A DNA stretch of 64,000 nucleotides, taken from positions 11,020-75,019 of the forward strand of contig CACKZK010000005.1 of assembly GCA_902604535.1 (NCBI GenBank), written 5' to 3'. Positions 2,864-20,027 of the stretch are shown here, piece after piece. Source of the stretch: an uncultured SAR86 cluster bacterium (lineage in GTDB: Bacteria; Pseudomonadota; Gammaproteobacteria; Magnimaribacterales; AG-339-G14). The position numbers and the translations under genes were made by a program. Position 1 is the stretch's first letter, and every line of letters starts with the position of its first letter. The notes beneath the pieces are model-generated. The model saw only the letters and a program-made list of their open reading frames with translations, did no database searches and was not told the origin of the DNA.

Positions 2864-2949
2864 GCCGGAGTGGCGGAATTGGTAGACGCGCTCGATTCAA
2901 AATCGAGTGCCCACAAGGCGTGAGAGTTCGAGTCTCTCCTCCGGCACCA
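2864..2949 (+). tRNA. tRNA-Leu(CAA)
   Basis: Acceptor GCCGGAG/CTCCGGC, anticodon arm CTCGA-TTCAAAA-TCGAG, long variable arm, GTTCGAG T-loop, CCA end. Confidence 0.95.
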
Positions 2950-7618: not shown

Positions 7619-7693
7619 GTCCCCTTCGTCTAGTGGTTAGGACACCGGGTTTTCATCTCGGCAACAGGGGTTCGAATCCCCTAGGGGACGCCA
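7619..7693 (+). tRNA. tRNA-Glu(TTC)
   Basis: GTCCCCT/AGGGGAC acceptor, CCGGG-TTTTCAT-CTCGG anticodon arm, GGTTCGAATCC, CCA. Confidence 0.95.
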
Positions 7694-7835: not shown

Positions 7836-8174
7836 ATGAAGTTACTTACATTGATTGTAAAACCATCAAAAACTGAATTAGTTAAGGAAGCTTTACATTC
7901 TTCAGGTATAGGTGGTGCAACAATAATAGAAGCTTCAGGTTATGGGTCACAAAAAGGTCAGTCCGAAACCTACCGGGGTACTGAGTATCGTGCAGATACA
8001 AATCCTAAGGTAATGTTTCAGGTAGCTTGTGATGATGGTGAAACTTCATCAATCATCGAGGCTGTCAGAAATGCTGCTGGTACAGGAAAGATTGGCGACG
8101 GGAAAATTTTTATAACTGAACTTACTGATGTTGTGAGAATTAGAACAGGTGAGACAGGCTCAAAAGCTATTTAA
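7836..8174 (+). CDS. glnK: P-II nitrogen regulatory protein GlnK
   Basis: 112 aa; T-loop GSQKGQSETYRGTEY (Y51), TGKIGDGKIF, RIRTGE; directly upstream of amtB. Confidence 0.93.
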   Translation: MKLLTLIVKPSKTELVKEALHSSGIGGATIIEASGYGSQKGQSETYRGTEYRADTNPKVMFQVACDDGETSSIIEAVRNAAGTGKIGDGKIFITELTDVVRIRTGETGSKAI

Positions 8175-8189
8175 TTTTAGGAGATTTTA

Positions 8190-9425
8190 ATGGATGAAAT
8201 AAAATTTGCGGTAGATACCTTTTACGCAATTATGGCTGGTGCCTTAGTTATGTTTATGGCTGCTGGTTTCACAATGTTGGAAGCTGGATTGGTTCAAAAG
8301 AAAGACGTATCGGAAATCGTAACAAAAAATTTAGGTTTATATTCAATTGCTTGCATCATGTATCTAGCATGCGGATTTATTTTAATGTATCCCGGATCCT
8401 CACTAATCGATGGAGTTATTCCTGGTATTGGATCTTCATGGGGTCTATCAACAGCTCTTCCTATCGAAGAAATAGGAATGGAATACGGTATGGACTATTC
8501 TCAACAAGCTGACTTCTTTTTCCAAGTAGTCTTTGTTGCAACAGCTATGTCTATTGTTTCAGGAGCAGTAGCTGGAAGAATGAAACTTTTACCATTCTTC
8601 TTGTTCGCTATTATCCTTACTGGTTTCATTTACCCTATTCAAGGTTACTGGAATTGGGGCGGCGGTTTCTTAAGCTCTGGAGGTTATTCAGACTACGCAG
8701 GTTCAGGAACAGTTCACTTATGTGGAGCGGCTGCAGCTTTAGCTTTAGTCACAGTTCTCGGTCCTAGAAAAGGAAAGTACGGTATGGACGGTTCAGTCAA
8801 TGCGATGCCAGGCTCAAATATTCCGATCGCTGCATTAGGAGCATGGATACTCTGGTTAGGTTGGTTTGGATTCAACGGTGGGTCAGAATTGATCATCAGT
8901 GATGAATCAAGTGCAATCGCAGTGAGTCAAGTATTCATGAATACAAACATGTCTGCAGCAGGTGGTGTTGTTGCCGCATTACTCACAAGCCTTGTTCTAA
9001 CTGGCAAATCGGATGTCACAATGGCCATAAACGGAGCCATTGCTGGATTAGTAGCTATTACTGCAGGTCCGAGTGCACCTACAGGTGGTGAGGCAGTAAT
9101 CATCGGTGCAATCGGTGGTGTCCTAGTCTACTTCTCAATATTGTTCTTTGAGAAAACCTTAAAAATGGATGATCCAGTTGGTGCTATTTCTGCTCACGGT
9201 ACAGTAGGTATTTACGGAGTAATGGTTGTTCCATTCACTTCGGATGCTTCATTCCTATGGCAGTTTTACGGAGTTCTTGCTATCGCAGGATTCACTTATG
9301 TTGCTAGCTTAATAGTTATCTACATCATCAATATGTTCTTAGCAATAAGAGCAACTGATGAAGAACAAGCGGCAGGTCTTGATTCTACTGAAATTGGAGT
9401 AGAGGCTTACCCAGAGTTCGACTAA
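8190..9425 (+). CDS. amtB: Ammonium transporter Amt
   Basis: DYAGSGTVH, WLGWFGFNGGS, DDPVGAISAHG (twin His); multi-pass membrane protein. Confidence 0.95.
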   Translation: MDEIKFAVDTFYAIMAGALVMFMAAGFTMLEAGLVQKKDVSEIVTKNLGLYSIACIMYLACGFILMYPGSSLIDGVIPGIGSSWGLSTALPIEEIGMEYGMDYSQQADFFFQVVFVATAMSIVSGAVAGRMKLLPFFLFAIILTGFIYPIQGYWNWGGGFLSSGGYSDYAGSGTVHLCGAAAALALVTVLGPRKGKYGMDGSVNAMPGSNIPIAALGAWILWLGWFGFNGGSELIISDESSAIAVSQVFMNTNMSAAGGVVAALLTSLVLTGKSDVTMAINGAIAGLVAITAGPSAPTGGEAVIIGAIGGVLVYFSILFFEKTLKMDDPVGAISAHGTVGIYGVMVVPFTSDASFLWQFYGVLAIAGFTYVASLIVIYIINMFLAIRATDEEQAAGLDSTEIGVEAYPEFD

Positions 9426-9444
9426 GTTTATTTTTTCCTCCCGC

Positions 9445-9479
9445 AAACAGGCGAGATTTTATCTCGCCTGTTTTTTTTT
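9445..9479 (+). terminator. Rho-independent terminator after amtB
   Basis: Perfect stem AAACAGGCGAGAT/ATCTCGCCTGTTT followed by T run. Confidence 0.9.
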
Positions 9480-9494
9480 ATTTTTTTAAAAAAA

Positions 9495-9503
9495 TGGTAT
9501 AAT
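9495..9503 (+). promoter_or_regulatory. Extended -10 sigma70 promoter for the riboswitch-peptide unit
   Basis: TGGTATAAT (TGn-TATAAT) ending 7 nt before the CGTTC aptamer start. Confidence 0.7.
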
Positions 9504-9510
9504 CGTCATA

Positions 9511-9645
9511 CGTTCATTTAGTAAACTTCATTAAGTTTATTAAACGGAAGTAGGGAGATAGGAAAACCTCTTTCTTTGATCTTAAAGAAAGGTAAGCAAG
9601 TACCAAGAAATTGGGAACGAGACCGAATATCTACCGAAGGAACGC
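9511..9645 (+). ncRNA. Glutamine riboswitch-like element (glnA / Downstream-peptide class) with expanded P3
   Basis: P1 CGTTC(9511-15)/GAACG(9640-44); P2 TTTAGTAAACTT/AAGTTTATTAAA; conserved CGGAAGTAGG...CCGAAGGAACGC with AGUA/GAA loop-E; located beside glnK-amtB. Confidence 0.8.
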
Positions 9646-9706
9646 GTTGATAAGGGTGTATACCGATTGGTATATGTACGTTTGAAACGAAAACTGGAGG
9701 AACGAT

Positions 9707-9868
9707 ATGACTACTTACTATAGAGGCGTTGAAGTTTCTGCTGATGTTAAATCAAAGTCTGAAAAGGCTTCTGACTTAAACTACAGAGGAACTAAGCACA
9801 ACGCAAACGTTGTCAAAAAGTCGTCAAAAACACCTGGTATTTACCGTGGTGTCAAGACTGCTGCATAA
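9707..9868 (+). CDS. 53-aa basic peptide with three YRG repeats (DUF4278-like; not in ORF track)
   Basis: SD GGAGG at 9696-9700; MTTYYRGVEVSADVKSKSEKASDLNYRGTKHNANVVKKSSKTPGIYRGVKTAA; followed by a terminator. Confidence 0.85.
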   Translation: MTTYYRGVEVSADVKSKSEKASDLNYRGTKHNANVVKKSSKTPGIYRGVKTAA

Positions 9869-9884
9869 CTGAAAGTTATGAACT

Positions 9885-9915
9885 AAAGGGAGGTTTTTTA
9901 ACCTCCCTTTTTTTT
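9885..9915 (+). terminator. Rho-independent terminator after YRG peptide
   Basis: AAAGGGAGGTT/AACCTCCCTTT stem plus T run. Confidence 0.9.
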
Positions 9916-9945
9916 GTTGGATAAATTTAAGGTAGAATTCAAAAA

Positions 9946-10836
9946 ATGGCTGAATTAAAACATCTTCCATCAACTTCATCTGTCGATAGTATTCTAGAAG
10001 TGCTTGAAAGAGATGCAGGGGTTATCATTGATAATGTTGTTAATTTTGATTTTCTAGTTGAGCTCAATGAAGAGTTAAATCCTTTCTTGTCGAGTGACAA
10101 TCTAGGTCGTGATGAGTTCACAGGTTTTAAAACTAATAGGATAGGGGCCCTCATTGCGCGGTCAAAAAAATGCAGGGAATTAGCTTTAAACAAATTAATC
10201 AATGAAACTGCCACTCAATACCTAAAACCGTATTGTGATGGCTATCAATTACACTTTACATCTGCGGTGAGTATTGGGCCTGGTGAATCTTCACAAATAC
10301 TTCACAGGGATAGGGGAATATGGGGCGGATATTTACCCAGAAAAGTAGAGCCTCTTTTAAGCACTATATGGGCAATAAACGAATTTACAAAAGCAAATGG
10401 AGCTACACAAATAGTTCCAGGCTCTCATAAATGGGATAAAAACAGACAGCCGCTTGAAAAAGAAATTGCTTTTGCTGAAATGGATGCAGGCTCTGTATTA
10501 ATATACACAGGAACTGTGCTACATGGTGGAGGAGAAAATACTACAAAAAATATCACAAGAACCGGAGTGTTTCTCCACTATGCAGTTAATTGGATAAGGC
10601 AGCAGGAAAATCAATATCTATCTTGTCCACCAGATATAGCTAAAGATTTGAGCTCAGAATTAAAATCTTTAATAGGATATTCAAAGGGCGGTTATGTTCT
10701 AGGTTTTTATTCTGATCCTTATGATAATGAAGCAAGGTTTGAATCTGTATCTCCAGAAAATATGTTTTCCAATTCTAAAGATAGATTTTCTGAAATCCCT
10801 GATCCAAAAGATCTAGTAAATGATTCTATAAAATAA
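9946..10836 (+). CDS. Phytanoyl-CoA dioxygenase (PhyH) family Fe(II)/2OG oxygenase
   Basis: QILHRD (HxD), NGATQIVPGSHKW, LHGGG motifs. Confidence 0.85.
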   Translation: MAELKHLPSTSSVDSILEVLERDAGVIIDNVVNFDFLVELNEELNPFLSSDNLGRDEFTGFKTNRIGALIARSKKCRELALNKLINETATQYLKPYCDGYQLHFTSAVSIGPGESSQILHRDRGIWGGYLPRKVEPLLSTIWAINEFTKANGATQIVPGSHKWDKNRQPLEKEIAFAEMDAGSVLIYTGTVLHGGGENTTKNITRTGVFLHYAVNWIRQQENQYLSCPPDIAKDLSSELKSLIGYSKGGYVLGFYSDPYDNEARFESVSPENMFSNSKDRFSEIPDPKDLVNDSIK

Positions 10837-10869
10837 AATAATAGATCTATCTTTAACCCTTAAAATTTC

Positions 10870-13443
10870 ATGAAAATTCTGTTTTCTATTGCTTTTATTT
10901 TTTCTCAATTCTTATTCGCTGAGGAAGAAGTAATAGTTACAGGGTCGTATATAAATAATTCTGATTCCGATTTAAGTCCAATTGAAATTTTTTCTATAGA
11001 TGATTATCGTAAACTCAATACCATTAGCTTGGCTGAGATTTCAAGATATGTTCCTTCTGTTTCAGGATCTCATTTTCAAACTAATGCCATGGATGGTGAA
11101 GATCAAGGACTGTCATCGATCACCTTGAGGGGGCTGGGTCATGCTTCGACTCTTCTTTTAATTAATACAAAGAGACAAACCTTTTCAGGAACACCTTCAC
11201 GAGAGGGTGAGGGATACATTGATGCAAATATAATTCCTGATATTGCCGTTAAAAAAATTGAAATTTTTAAAGAGGGAGCAACTTCTTTATATGGATCTGA
11301 TGCTGTCGCTGGCGTTGTTAATGTTCTTACTTATAAAGATTTTGAAGGATTTCTTTTTAGAACTGATAACCAATTTGTTGAATCTTATTCACAAAATGAT
11401 AACAAATTAGGATTTTTGTATGGCGTTAAAGAAGATAAAAATCATCTAGTTGTAGGACTTGAAAGTTTTTTTAGATCGCCTTTGTCAGCAAAAGAAATCA
11501 ATGGAATAGCAGATCTTTCAATAAGTACCTTTGGCAAAACATTTATAACAACTGAATCTGAAGAAATTTTATCTGGTGATTACCAAGGTTCCTATGATGC
11601 CAATGAAAAGATCCCTGATCCAAACTGTGAGATTAATGGAGGATTAATTCTAGGGGGCTTTTGTAAGTTTGCCTATGGTGAGAGATTCAATATCATAAAT
11701 AAAGAAAGACATAATAAGGGATATTTAAATCTGACTTCCAATATTGAAGATTCCTATCTTGAAAGTAATGAATTAATTTTGATTTATGCCAAAGTGGATG
11801 TTTTAGATAATCCTCAATCTCCTTCTTATCCAGCACTACCTTTTATTTCAAGAAACATATTGCCGAACGAAGGAGGTAGCCCATTCAAGAATGAAATCAA
11901 ATGGAGAGGTAGACCTTTAGGAGCCAATTATCCATCGCCTAATTCAACAAAAGATATTTCTCAATATCATATAACTAATACGTTAAAGTTTTCTTTTAAA
12001 AACAGTCAATTTTTTGAATTGTCAGTTTCGCAAAGTTCTCATAATAATTTAGCTATTAGACCCGACATTATAAATTCAAGATTTTTGGATGCTCTCCAAG
12101 GAAAAGGGGGCGTAACTCAAGATAAGCTATGGAATTTATTTTCTGACACAAACTCAAGTGAGTTAGTAGAGTATATAAAAGGCAACTTAATTGCTGAAAA
12201 AGGAGGCGCTCTTTCCTCTATAGATGGAATATTTGTATCTTCTAGGGATTCTCTAGACTATTCGACAGGTTTTCAAATCGCAAAGGATGTTTTAGATATC
12301 AAGTACAATGATTTAAGTAGAATAGAAATTGATTCAAATGGCAGCATCACTAAACAGGCCGATCTATTTTTCCTGGGCGGAGGAACGGATGTTTCACAAA
12401 GTAGATCAAAAGTAGCTGCCTTTGTTGAAATCAACCAAATTTTTTCAAATAACCTAGATTTGAGATTTGCTTTAAGGTATGAAAATTTCTCAAGCCAGGA
12501 ATCTTTGGATCCAAAAATATCTATCAAATATCAACCGAGCGATGTCTTTGCTCTAAGATTTTCCTCAAGTTCTTCATTTACGATGCCCTCCATGGCTCAA
12601 ATGTATGGATCAGATATTGTTCTTGGAAGCGTCAGAGACGTTACAGGAAGTGTTTTTGTTAGACAGGGCCAAATTGGAAATCCAAATCTTAAGCCAGCAA
12701 AGTCAATAAATACCAATTTAGGATTTTTGATTTTTCCATCAAATGCTTCGTCAATCAGCTTTGATTTTTTTGATTTTCGTTACAAAGACAGAATTGAGGC
12801 AGAAAGCGCTCAGGCAATGGTATTAAACAATCCTTTTAGTCCTGGCATTTCCAGAAATTCATCTGGAGAGATTACAGGCGTTACAGCCTCATACATCAAC
12901 GAGGATAGATCTTTTATAAACGGATTAGATTTTTCAGTAAACGTAATTCACGAATTCAAAAAATTCGGAAGTTTAAACTTTAAGGTTTCATCCACGACAT
13001 TATTTTACTTCTTAACTCCTCATCCTGAAGAGAATAATAACAAGGAAGAATTGATAGATAGAGTAGGTAAATTCAATTACGATGCGCACACCCATTCTTT
13101 ACCAAAAAATAAGATTAATATTTTCTTATCTTGGAATTATAATGAATACAGTCTTGATTGGGCTTCAAGGTATGTCTCTGGATATTCAAATGAAAGAGTA
13201 ATAAGCGATTATGCAAAATCCTTAGGATACACAAATGAAGTTGATGAATTCTTAGTCCATGATATCTCTATCACTAGATCATTTTCATTAGAAACAGGGA
13301 AACTCGATTTAAAATTTGGGATCATTAACTTTTTGAATAAAACAGCGCCAAGATTATACGACGCGCCCGATTTTAGTTTTGACACCAGGTTGCATGATCC
13401 AACCGGCAGAACGTATAACTTTTCTATTCAGTATCAACTTTAG
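10870..13443 (+). CDS. TonB-dependent receptor
   Basis: Signal peptide, EEVIVTGS TonB box, plug motif EIFKEGATSLYGSDAVAGVVN, GRTYNFSIQYQL C-terminus. Confidence 0.92.
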   Translation: MKILFSIAFIFSQFLFAEEEVIVTGSYINNSDSDLSPIEIFSIDDYRKLNTISLAEISRYVPSVSGSHFQTNAMDGEDQGLSSITLRGLGHASTLLLINTKRQTFSGTPSREGEGYIDANIIPDIAVKKIEIFKEGATSLYGSDAVAGVVNVLTYKDFEGFLFRTDNQFVESYSQNDNKLGFLYGVKEDKNHLVVGLESFFRSPLSAKEINGIADLSISTFGKTFITTESEEILSGDYQGSYDANEKIPDPNCEINGGLILGGFCKFAYGERFNIINKERHNKGYLNLTSNIEDSYLESNELILIYAKVDVLDNPQSPSYPALPFISRNILPNEGGSPFKNEIKWRGRPLGANYPSPNSTKDISQYHITNTLKFSFKNSQFFELSVSQSSHNNLAIRPDIINSRFLDALQGKGGVTQDKLWNLFSDTNSSELVEYIKGNLIAEKGGALSSIDGIFVSSRDSLDYSTGFQIAKDVLDIKYNDLSRIEIDSNGSITKQADLFFLGGGTDVSQSRSKVAAFVEINQIFSNNLDLRFALRYENFSSQESLDPKISIKYQPSDVFALRFSSSSSFTMPSMAQMYGSDIVLGSVRDVTGSVFVRQGQIGNPNLKPAKSINTNLGFLIFPSNASSISFDFFDFRYKDRIEAESAQAMVLNNPFSPGISRNSSGEITGVTASYINEDRSFINGLDFSVNVIHEFKKFGSLNFKVSSTTLFYFLTPHPEENNNKEELIDRVGKFNYDAHTHSLPKNKINIFLSWNYNEYSLDWASRYVSGYSNERVISDYAKSLGYTNEVDEFLVHDISITRSFSLETGKLDLKFGIINFLNKTAPRLYDAPDFSFDTRLHDPTGRTYNFSIQYQL

Positions 13444-17353: not shown

Positions 17354-18061
17354 ATGGGAGAAATATTAGCTGTTGACGATTACGTAGGTATATCGTTTTG
17401 GTTAGCTGCCGCAATAATGTTAGCTTCGACTGTTTTCTTTTTTGTAGAGAGATCAGACGTGCCAGTAAAATGGAAAACATCGTTGACGGTTGCTGGTTTG
17501 GTTACGGGTGTAGCTTTTTGGCACTACCTCTATATGAGAGGTGTCTGGATTTACGCAGGTGAGACTCCAACAGTTTTCAGATACATTGACTGGTTAATTA
17601 CTGTACCGCTACAAATAATTGAATTTTATTTAATTATCGCTGCGGTTACTGCTATTAGTTCAGCTGTTTTCTGGAAACTCCTTATTGCTTCCCTAGTCAT
17701 GCTTATCGGTGGTTTCATCGGTGAAGCTGGTTTAGGCGATGTCGTAGTATGGTGGATTGTTGGAATGATTGCTTGGCTATACATCATTTATGAAATTTTT
17801 GCTGGTGAAACTGCGAAGGCTAATGCGAGTAGTGGTAATGCTGCTAGTCAACAAGCCTTTAATACAATCAAGTGGATCGTGACTATTGGGTGGGCTATCT
17901 ACCCGATTGGATATGCTTGGGGTTATTTCGGAGATGGACTAAATGAAGATGCTCTTAACATTGTTTATAACCTTGCAGATTTGATTAACAAAGCTGCCTT
18001 CGGTTTAGCAATATGGGCTGCTGCTATGAAAGATAAAGAAGCAAGCACCAGCCACGCTTAA
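17354..18061 (+). CDS. Proteorhodopsin, DTE proton pump, Q105 (blue-tuned type)
   Basis: RYIDWLITVPLQIIEF (D97, T101, Q105, E108), WHY His75, YNLADLINK retinal lysine. Confidence 0.95.
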   Translation: MGEILAVDDYVGISFWLAAAIMLASTVFFFVERSDVPVKWKTSLTVAGLVTGVAFWHYLYMRGVWIYAGETPTVFRYIDWLITVPLQIIEFYLIIAAVTAISSAVFWKLLIASLVMLIGGFIGEAGLGDVVVWWIVGMIAWLYIIYEIFAGETAKANASSGNAASQQAFNTIKWIVTIGWAIYPIGYAWGYFGDGLNEDALNIVYNLADLINKAAFGLAIWAAAMKDKEASTSHA

Positions 18062-19951: not shown

Positions 19952-20027
19952 GCGAGTATAGCTCAGCTGGTAGAGCGCGACCTTGCCAAGGTCGAGGCCA
20001 CGGGTTCGAACCCCGTTACTCGCTCCA
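19952..20027 (+). tRNA. tRNA-Gly(GCC)
   Basis: GCGAGTA/TACTCGC acceptor, CGACC-TTGCCAA-GGTCG anticodon arm, GGTTCGAACCC, CCA; 76 nt. Confidence 0.95.

Follow-up and report, generated by a model that had tools for sequence, protein, structure and literature searches.

Can a heterotrophic marine gammaproteobacterium sense glutamine with an RNA of the kind that cyanobacteria use? This question is raised by positions 9495-9917 of a 64,000-nt stretch of DNA (hereafter the window; contig CACKZK010000005.1) from an uncultured bacterium of the SAR86 cluster, where a first-pass annotation, made from the sequence alone, had proposed a glutamine riboswitch and an unannotated open reading frame (ORF) beside the genes glnK and amtB. 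The window belongs to contig 5 of an assembly of 1.05 Mb (77% complete), and we compared it with four relatives that are 94-97% complete. We report here that 9495-9917 is a self-contained transcription unit. With moderate confidence we favour a joint reading in which the unit carries a junction-bearing type 1 glutamine riboswitch acting as a translational ON switch for a small peptide that would regulate nitrogen assimilation.

The elements listed by the first-pass annotation, namely two strong terminators, a TGnTATAAT box, the aptamer blocks, a GGAGG sequence and a 53-aa ORF, were all recovered at their places, by a terminator scan and in the sequence itself. The unit and its parts are as follows.

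9445-9483 (hairpin 9445-9473), plus strand: intrinsic terminator of the preceding glnK-amtB unit, with a 13-bp stem, a loop and a U tract (terminator scan and sequence)
9495-9917, plus strand: riboswitch-peptide transcription unit, with its own promoter and its own terminator
9495-9503, plus strand: extended -10 promoter TGGTATAAT, of the form TGnTATAAT (sequence)
9509-9648, plus strand: glutamine riboswitch aptamer, RF01739 type 1 (cmscan, 37.6 bits against a gathering score of 35)
9555-9633, plus strand: 79-nt insert in P2, forming a three-way junction (covariance model R1 and covariation)
9645-9689, plus strand: expression platform, in which P5 (9645-9648, CGUU, with 9686-9689, AACG) encloses the hairpin P4 (9658-9675)
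9696-9709, plus strand: Shine-Dalgarno sequence GGAGG (9696-9700), a 6-nt spacer and the ATG (9707-9709) (sequence)
9707-9868, plus strand: 53-aa ORF of DUF4278 type with three YRG motifs (Pfam, E 8.3e-5)
9885-9917 (hairpin 9885-9910), plus strand: intrinsic terminator of the riboswitch-peptide unit, a hairpin with a U tract (terminator scan)

The transcript is predicted to start near 9510, directly at P1 and about 7 nt after the -10 element; in relatives, TAATAT or TATAAT lies 7-10 nt 5′ of the aptamer, with TTGC or TTGA at -35. The terminator scan returned four terminator-like sites in 3 kb, against 2.2 +/- 1.5 in shuffled sequences. In four seawater RNA libraries, contigs span the whole unit (for example 9309-9993 in library X4 and 9249-9766 in X1), which is compatible with transcription of the unit and no proof of it, DNA carry-over being possible. 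The same contigs also bridge the amtB terminator, and the start, end and expression level of the transcript cannot be read from them.

A type 1 glutamine riboswitch with a three-way junction in P2

The glnA-type riboswitch core that the first-pass annotation had recognized was confirmed by the match to Rfam model RF01739, which has an E-value of 1.5e-4 over the 64-kb window and of 1.9e-6 over an 801-nt stretch. P1 is formed by 9511-9515 with 9640-9644, the P1a hairpin by 9517-9544 and P2 by 9553-9554 with 9634-9635; the core ACGGAAGUAGG occupies 9544-9554, and the three blocks CGUUCA, ACGGAAGUAGG and CCGAAGGAACGC are all found at the locus. Every upper-case position of the consensus blocks CGUUCA, ACGGAAGUAgG and CcGAAGGAACGC is matched, and these positions are unchanged in 74/74 distinct leaders. 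The same annotation had also invoked the Downstream-peptide pattern (RF01704, glutamine-II), for which nothing was found: between 9300 and 10100 that model gave no match at E<=10, and none of the other families among the 4227 Rfam models scanned there came near its threshold.

What distinguishes this leader is P2. In place of the short hairpin with the 6-nt loop of the RF01739 model there are 79 nt, which the first-pass annotation had taken for a separate helix P3, and because these form a three-way junction we call the element a variant of RF01739. P2 runs on into P2a (9556-9560 with 9628-9632), and P2a ends at the junction, which bears the hairpins Pa (9569-9592) and Pb (9603-9614, with a GAAA loop). 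The insert matches no other Rfam family.

The structure is well supported by covariation. Among 40 distinct genome-derived leaders, 97.8% of alignment cells were paired and 17 pairs were double-changed, compared with 11.0 +/- 1.4 in shuffles and 1-7 in slid controls. With metagenome copies added (74 distinct leaders), 96.6% of cells were paired and 21/41 pairs double-changed, compared with 14.5 +/- 1.3 in shuffles, none of 500 of which reached 21, and 3-7 in slid controls. In this larger set double changes occur in six of the seven pairs of P1a and six of the nine pairs of Pa, and the P2/P2a stem, 3 to 8 bp long, occurs in no fewer than six compensating versions. Covariation in P1-P3 had been named by the first-pass annotation as a check on its proposal; P1a and P2/P2a do covary, while P1 is invariant across leaders and hence uninformative.

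Under the stricter filters of whole-genome Rfam scans the site in the window reaches only 18.4 bits as a local match, and such a scan reports no hit in the window's own genome. A covariance model built from the insert alone (model R1) nevertheless detects the element in 44 of 151 genomes from the order, always as a single copy (32/40 in family f1, 10/40 in f2, 1/40 in f3 and 0/30 in f4). This recurrence once per genome, together with the strong covariation, argues that the match is not due to chance. A second weak RF01739 match in the same genome (G000:C3:21320-21374, 19.1 bits) was rejected as a riboswitch since it lacks ACGGAAGUA. On its conserved blocks and helices, we assign the leader to type 1 of the glutamine riboswitches, a known class, here paired with a known class of downstream peptide.

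The downstream gene encodes a DUF4278-type YRG peptide

The 53-aa product has a predicted mass of 5.8 kDa and is basic (pI about 10). In the aligned peptides of relatives, the initial methionine and all three YRG motifs are invariant, although the motifs are spelled with 4, 5 and 8 different codon strings, including AGA versus CGT/CGC; differences at codon positions 1, 2 and 3 number 231, 168 and 481. To judge from these substitutions, the ORF is a real coding sequence under selection at the protein level. Across 97 distinct peptides YRG is unchanged in 283/283 motifs.

The first-pass annotation had linked the peptide to DUF4278. The Pfam profile (PF14105) aligns residues 1-50 with its positions 1-56 of 57, at a score just short of the cut-off, and the peptides of relatives match it at E<=0.01 in 41/41 cases (best 5.9e-6). 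The nearest Atlas clusters are likewise DUF4278, with scores of 0.88-0.89, which we treat as a lead only. The peptide is predicted to be largely disordered: an AlphaFold 2 (AF2) model is of low confidence (pLDDT 63.9, pTM 0.19) and mostly coil. A profile search against PDB sequences gave only a chance match (E 0.92). In a set of 5.8 billion proteins the family comprises 359 clusters, nearly all of them unnamed marine metagenome entries.

Peptide and insert travel together. At genome loci bearing the insert, a 52-55-aa ORF with three YRG motifs comes next in 45/45 cases. A gapped exact pattern derived from the insert retrieved at least 80 metagenome contigs and 30 IMG/VR contigs, and where at least 330 nt were available downstream, a short ORF bearing two or three YRG motifs lay 3′ of the insert at 69/69 metagenome loci (among the matches listed) and 24/24 viral loci. 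The insert thus appears to be exclusively tied to YRG peptides.

Expression platform and direction of switching

Between aptamer and ORF the conserved order is CGUUGAGAAGGGUGU, then P4, then AUGUACGAAAUCGAAACGAAAACUGGAGG. P4 shows double changes in five of its seven pairs, and P5 compensatory changes in two of four (GC to UA and UA to AU). The C right after P1, which is also the first nucleotide of P5, is invariant in 74/74 leaders, as is the ribosome site CUGGAG. A reading of the platform as an upstream leader peptide (TTG frame) was rejected, since neither the frame nor its length is conserved, whereas P4 covaries. Because the terminator scan found no terminator between aptamer and ORF, control is most likely translational.

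For the cyanobacterial relatives of this RNA, the excerpts of PMC6212724 from which we cite here and below describe two effects of glutamine binding: a long-range G-C pair forms with the C after P1 (the 'linchpin'), and a short helix joined to P1 melts. For gifB, this C and the nucleotides next to it were proposed to pair with the ribosome-binding site (RBS) and to be freed upon binding. Glutamine raises the expression of both Synechocystis gifB and a Prochlorococcus DUF4278 gene, making ON switches of both leaders tested. Our data are consistent with a related mechanism. Without glutamine, CGUU would pair with AACG, 6 nt 5′ of the Shine-Dalgarno sequence, and the resulting P5 would lock the P4/P5 domain against the landing site of the ribosome. 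With glutamine bound, the C after P1 would be drawn into the aptamer core as the linchpin pair, P5 would melt, and the region from -21 onward would be freed for the 30S subunit. We infer, by analogy, an ON switch that works through the melting of P5 next to the ribosome site, and the translational ON logic is probably that of the Synechocystis gifB leader. In other platforms of the data set, P1 is immediately followed by a run of pyrimidines complementary to a purine-rich sequence that resembles an RBS; examples are the gltB leaders of the same genus and a phage type with a GAC/GUC P2.

The peptide would accordingly be made at high glutamine, as a small protein-binding regulator of nitrogen assimilation. 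It might act on the glutamine synthetase (GS) GlnII or on a protein that receives the PII T-loop, with AmtB and an NtrB-like kinase as candidates.

Nitrogen-regulatory background

The first-pass annotation had further suggested that the riboswitch might replace the GlnD/GlnE/NtrBC cascade. For two of the components this fits, in that GlnD and GlnE were each found in 0/5 genomes (the window genome and the four relatives). For NtrBC it does not. The only GS found is a GlnII type of 326 aa, and its gene (contig 7 of the window genome, G000; loci L091 and L102) is followed by a gene for an NtrB-like kinase (NF008293, 231 bits against a cut-off of 240) and then by one for a 256-aa response regulator with a REC domain and a Fis-type helix-turn-helix but no AAA+ domain. 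The lack of AAA+ fits the status of sigma-54, for which there was a single partial match in one of the five genomes and none in the other four. A sigma-54-independent NtrBC-like pair thus seems to remain in the genome.

A different arrangement is seen in family f4 (genus g7), whose genomes measure 0.6-1.2 Mb. PII was found in 0/30 of these genomes and the YRG peptide also in 0/30; an ammonium transporter is present in 23/30, and each genome has 2-5 glutamine riboswitches, which stand directly on GS genes (GlnII and GSI). Nitrogen control in this family may be largely RNA-based. The YRG peptide is seen only in families that have PII, and in family f1 it occurs in 33/40 genomes; at the four glnII loci of family f1 that were scanned, no Rfam element was found.

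Several observations weigh against the joint reading and should be set against the conservation described above. The DUF4278 score of the window peptide, 23.3 bits, lies below the gathering cut-off of 25.3. P5 leaves the Shine-Dalgarno sequence itself uncovered, and its covariation comes from three metagenome leaders of one lineage. ViennaRNA calculations on 40 leaders, with P1 forced or free, showed no consistent change in the accessibility of the Shine-Dalgarno sequence or the AUG, so that thermodynamics leaves the choice between ON and OFF undecided. With an NtrB-like/NtrC-like pair present, nitrogen regulation does not rest with the riboswitch alone. The junction strands are so extremely conserved as to suggest that the insert does something more specific than mere stabilization. 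Lastly, the cyanobacterial precedent for a peptide of this kind, the GS-inactivating factor IF17, transfers imperfectly: according to the excerpts of PMC6316151 that we cite, the DUF4278 part of IF17 is dispensable for GS inactivation and GS control of the IF type is ruled out in marine picocyanobacteria, and GlnII belongs to a different GS class from the cyanobacterial target.

Alternative readings of the unit

The last of these points bear most directly on the proposal that the peptide is an inactivating factor like IF17 or IF7, binding and inhibiting GlnII and so closing a negative feedback from glutamine to GS as in cyanobacteria. IF17 (GifB) and IF7 (GifA) are small basic proteins made under nitrogen excess, gifB is riboswitch-controlled, and DUF4278 makes up the N-terminal part of IF17; riboswitch-DUF4278 units have indeed been regarded as IF17-like (PMC6212724). 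The basic charge and predicted disorder of the window peptide suit such a role, as does its distribution, which complements that of riboswitches on GS genes: family f4 has the latter without the peptide, and family f1 has the peptide with no Rfam hit at its glnII loci. However, this complementarity amounts to one phylogenetic contrast, so that distribution cannot decide between a GS-directed and a PII- or AmtB-directed role. The part of IF17 that binds GS is its C-terminal region (PMC6212724 and PMC6316151, both in excerpt), which is absent here, the Pfam match filling residues 1-50 of 53. A complex prediction with two GlnII copies and the peptide scored 0.00, which speaks neither for nor against binding. 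On balance, we consider a GS inactivator a doubtful identification.

A second alternative concerns the junction. In four families, as in phage contigs and metagenomes, the strands GGAAAACC, GGUAAGCAAGUA (of the general form GG(Y)AAGCAAGUA) and GGGAACGAGACCGAA show almost no variation, in contrast to the freely varying helices. Three core blocks, AAGUA, GGAACG and CCGAA, are present a second time within the insert, and RNAalifold prefers to pair the 5′ strand of P1 with the insert's GAACG; this may reflect an origin by duplication or a competing fold. Taken with the exclusive link to YRG-peptide genes, such features might indicate that the junction acts as an additional sensor or binds a protein, perhaps the basic peptide itself in an autoregulatory loop, and that the leader integrates two inputs. 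Yet natural variants do without it: the P2 of G018 is a plain extended hairpin, G059 carries a tandem of two compact aptamers, and both retain the same platform and peptide, which makes the junction accessory and dispensable for the basic switch. Pb frequently has a GNRA loop, in several lineages, as would suit plain docking or stabilization, and no Rfam family matches the insert. We therefore think a second input unlikely, and see the three-way junction most likely as a peripheral domain that stabilizes or tunes the aptamer.

The switch might also operate in the opposite sense, glutamine lowering synthesis of the peptide, or the 3′ strand of P2a might swap between its 5′ partner and the start-codon region. 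In the two commonest types of P2a the stretch before the AUG does mimic the 5′ strand of P2a (AGAUA with GAUAUG; AAAAC with AAACC/GAACC), and RNAalifold predicts the pairing AUAUC:GAUAU. But this duplex is worth only -3.4 kcal/mol, the native pairing of type B (-1.2) is no better than cross pairings, and leaders with the stem types GCAAAAC/GUUUGC and GCAAAC/GUUUGAUC have no such mimicry. With the cyanobacterial DUF4278 leaders that have been tested acting as ON switches, an OFF or strand-swap mechanism is distinctly unlikely, and we retain the ON switch.

The remaining alternative involves the neighbouring nitrogen genes, which form a separate transcription unit.

7836-8174, plus strand: glnK, P-II protein with the T-loop SETYRGTEY (Pfam and NCBIfam)
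8190-9425, plus strand: amtB, ammonium transporter of the 'marine subtype' (Pfam and NCBIfam)

The T-loop of the window's GlnK reads SET-YRG-TEY, with Y46-R47-G48 at its tip, the very tripeptide that is invariant in the peptide family. The peptide could thus be a decoy of the PII T-loop, its three YRG motifs, about 20 residues apart, plugging the pores of the AmtB trimer or occupying T-loop receptors such as the NtrB-like kinase, and, if made at high glutamine only, it would supply a glutamine input like that of enterobacterial GlnD. In the cited excerpts of PMC4274968, T-loop tips enter the pore exits of AmtB and Arg47 blocks conduction; GlnD was not found in the five genomes, and the peptide is confined to families with PII, family f4 lacking both. 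An hhalign comparison aligns the second motif of the peptide with residues 38-56 of GlnK (19 columns, 37% identity), but with a probability of only 2.4%; the likeness is essentially one tripeptide, and the residues after YRG differ, K standing at +4 in 175/283 motifs where the T-loop has E. The same excerpts report that GlnK R47A still binds AmtB and that GlnK-AmtB control needs no modification system, so that a substitute for GlnD is not needed.

Genomic position cuts both ways. The first-pass annotation had placed the unit beside glnK-amtB, which is true of the window but lineage-specific in the order. The unit adjoins amtB in genera g1 and g4 and lies 2-3.5 kb from glnK-amtB in g3 and g9, giving four genera with the unit within about 3.5 kb of amt in four different arrangements; in g2 its place is between rnc-era and recO, and in g10, g14 and g16 it lies elsewhere. 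Within family f1, moreover, synteny reflects a single ancestral neighbourhood with local inversions. A T-loop decoy is, in our estimation, very unlikely. In its most specific form, which is slightly less probable still, the three-YRG peptide would imitate with one chain all three T-loops of the PII trimer, would be made only at high glutamine and would plug AmtB or occupy other T-loop receptors. If it were true, marine bacteria without GlnD, and T4-like phages, would gain an RNA-based glutamine input into the PII network, and the DUF4278-only peptides of picocyanobacteria would be PII mimics too.

Distribution across the order and the wider regulon

As the first-pass annotation had supposed, the host is not a cyanobacterium, which is clear from gene content: photosystem genes (Photo_RC) were found in 0/5 genomes (the window genome and its four relatives) and a rhodopsin in 5/5. 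Genomes of the order measure about 0.7-1.8 Mb. RF01739 matches occur in 38 of 61 genomes of the order, in all four families and often in tandem. In a sample of the class with one genome per family, a match was found in 1/151, a member of the same order, and in 0/149 for the other families. At least 12 genomes share the same exact-pattern 21-mer.

The junction variant is easily overlooked. In genus g3, RF01739 under strict filters was found in 0/7 genomes and model R1 in 11/13; because strict-filter scans miss the variant, routine annotation under-counts glutamine riboswitches in the order.

Glutamine riboswitches in the order are linked to a range of genes besides that of the YRG peptide (loci L003-L030 and L092-L095). 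They precede gltB, encoding the large subunit of GOGAT, in the window's genus, and GlnII and GSI genes in family f4, with GSI standing behind tandem aptamers; others lie upstream of a Gcw_chp outer-membrane protein, a circularly permuted ATP-grasp protein and three unrelated ORFs of 45-54 aa that have no Pfam family. These compact or tandem aptamers evidently form an order-wide glutamine-riboswitch regulon. The gltB riboswitch occurs in 11 of 15 genomes of the same genus; the N-terminus of gltB was not found in the window's 77%-complete assembly.

Five gltB leaders (L009, L014, L020, L023 and L024) carry CAUCUUUC right after P1, complementary to GGAAGGAUG a few nt downstream. The AUG in these leaders opens a mini-ORF of three codons that ends 7 nt before the gltB start, and this could be a case of translational coupling.

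The linked genes fit an older observation. Metagenomic glnA RNAs were reported by Weinberg et al. (2010) upstream of glnA, gltB, amt and PII genes (PMC2864571, excerpts), a list with which the riboswitch-linked genes of this order agree. In the excerpts of Klaehn et al. (2018; PMC6212724), the riboswitch is exclusive to cyanobacterial genomes and the source of the metagenomic glnA-linked copies is given as unknown. RF01739 has since been mentioned in passing, inside deletions of SAR86 metagenome-assembled genomes (MAGs), in a 2025 study whose excerpts contain no further analysis of it (PMC12379486).

The cassette in T4-like phages

The junction-bearing riboswitch also stands before a two- or three-YRG peptide on IMG/VR contigs (L187-L216, for example L202, L205, L211 and L216). 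At least one of nine cellular neighbour genes was found on 0/30 of these contigs, compared with 38/80 metagenome loci (among the matches listed). In a PHROGs scan of ten long ORFs from four of the longer contigs, eight matched phage families and two had no hit; the matches comprise a T4-type DNA polymerase, ribonucleotide reductase subunits, an SbcC-like nuclease subunit, helicases, a major head protein and a portal protein. The polymerase is about 43% identical to those of its nearest GenBank phages, T4-like cyanophages, and neither the window unit nor a phage copy had a blastn match among 50,697 GenBank phage records. By this gene content, the carriers of the same riboswitch and YRG peptide are uncultured T4-like myophages. 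Some phage platforms are of the P4/P5 kind, and others are simple, with a pyrimidine run right after P1 that faces the Shine-Dalgarno sequence.

Glutamine riboswitches are already on record from Melnitz-like and SAR11 myophages (PMC9004378, excerpts). The elements of Melnitz and the pelagimyophages are likewise of RF01739 type and borne by phages of streamlined heterotrophs. In the cited excerpts, however, they stand next to tmRNA and other genes, whereas those described here are of the junction variant and precede a YRG peptide.

Genomic surroundings of the unit

A PhyH-family dioxygenase gene and a TonB-dependent receptor gene follow the unit (9946-13443), and in genus g4 the unit alone is inverted, flanked by a TonB-dependent receptor gene and amtB. 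The window's rhodopsin gene (PF01036, 160 bits) lies at 17387-18028, about 8 kb 3′ of the riboswitch unit. Three tRNA genes are present in the window (2864-2946, 7619-7690 and 19952-20024), the second of them between a SpoU methylase gene and glnK.

Relation to known systems and significance

The closest known counterpart is the leader of Synechocystis gifB, a type 1 RF01739 element with the same core, the same layout of P1, P1a and P2, a C after P1 and a DUF4278 gene downstream. The window element differs from it in having a 79-nt three-way junction instead of a P2 loop of about 6 nt, and a P4/P5 platform instead of a simple anti-Shine-Dalgarno. It resides in a rhodopsin-bearing gammaproteobacterium, whose genome measures about 1.1 Mb, or in a T4-like phage, instead of in a cyanobacterium. 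The type 2 system (RF01704) of Prochlorococcus, with DUF4278 peptides such as Yfr6/PMM1846, likewise belongs to a streamlined marine genome and combines a glutamine leader with a short peptide consisting of DUF4278 alone, but with a different aptamer architecture and in a different phylum. Compared with IF17, the window peptide has no C-terminal GS-binding part, and the only GS found is GlnII.

The first-pass annotation had ranked the locus as its best candidate for an undescribed system. Two of its ingredients prove to have been described: RF01739 in SAR86 MAGs (PMC12379486) and, in cyanobacteria, the pairing of the riboswitch with DUF4278 (PMC6212724), each cited from excerpts. In the literature searched, the scope of which was main text, no earlier mention was found of the variant with a three-way junction in P2 or of its exclusive association with YRG peptides, so that long-P2 variants may be listed in supplementary tables. 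What is new is therefore the bacterial order, a conserved structural domain, the platform and the presence in uncultured T4-like phages, and not a new kind of system.

Overall, our work supplies a taxon and a regulon for the old orphan observation of metagenomic riboswitches linked to glnA. The aptamer variant is structurally new and experimentally tractable, as nature provides forms with and without the additional domain. A riboswitch-peptide cassette is common to abundant ocean heterotrophs and uncultured T4-like phages, and its presence in both hosts and phages points to a conserved host target in nitrogen control.

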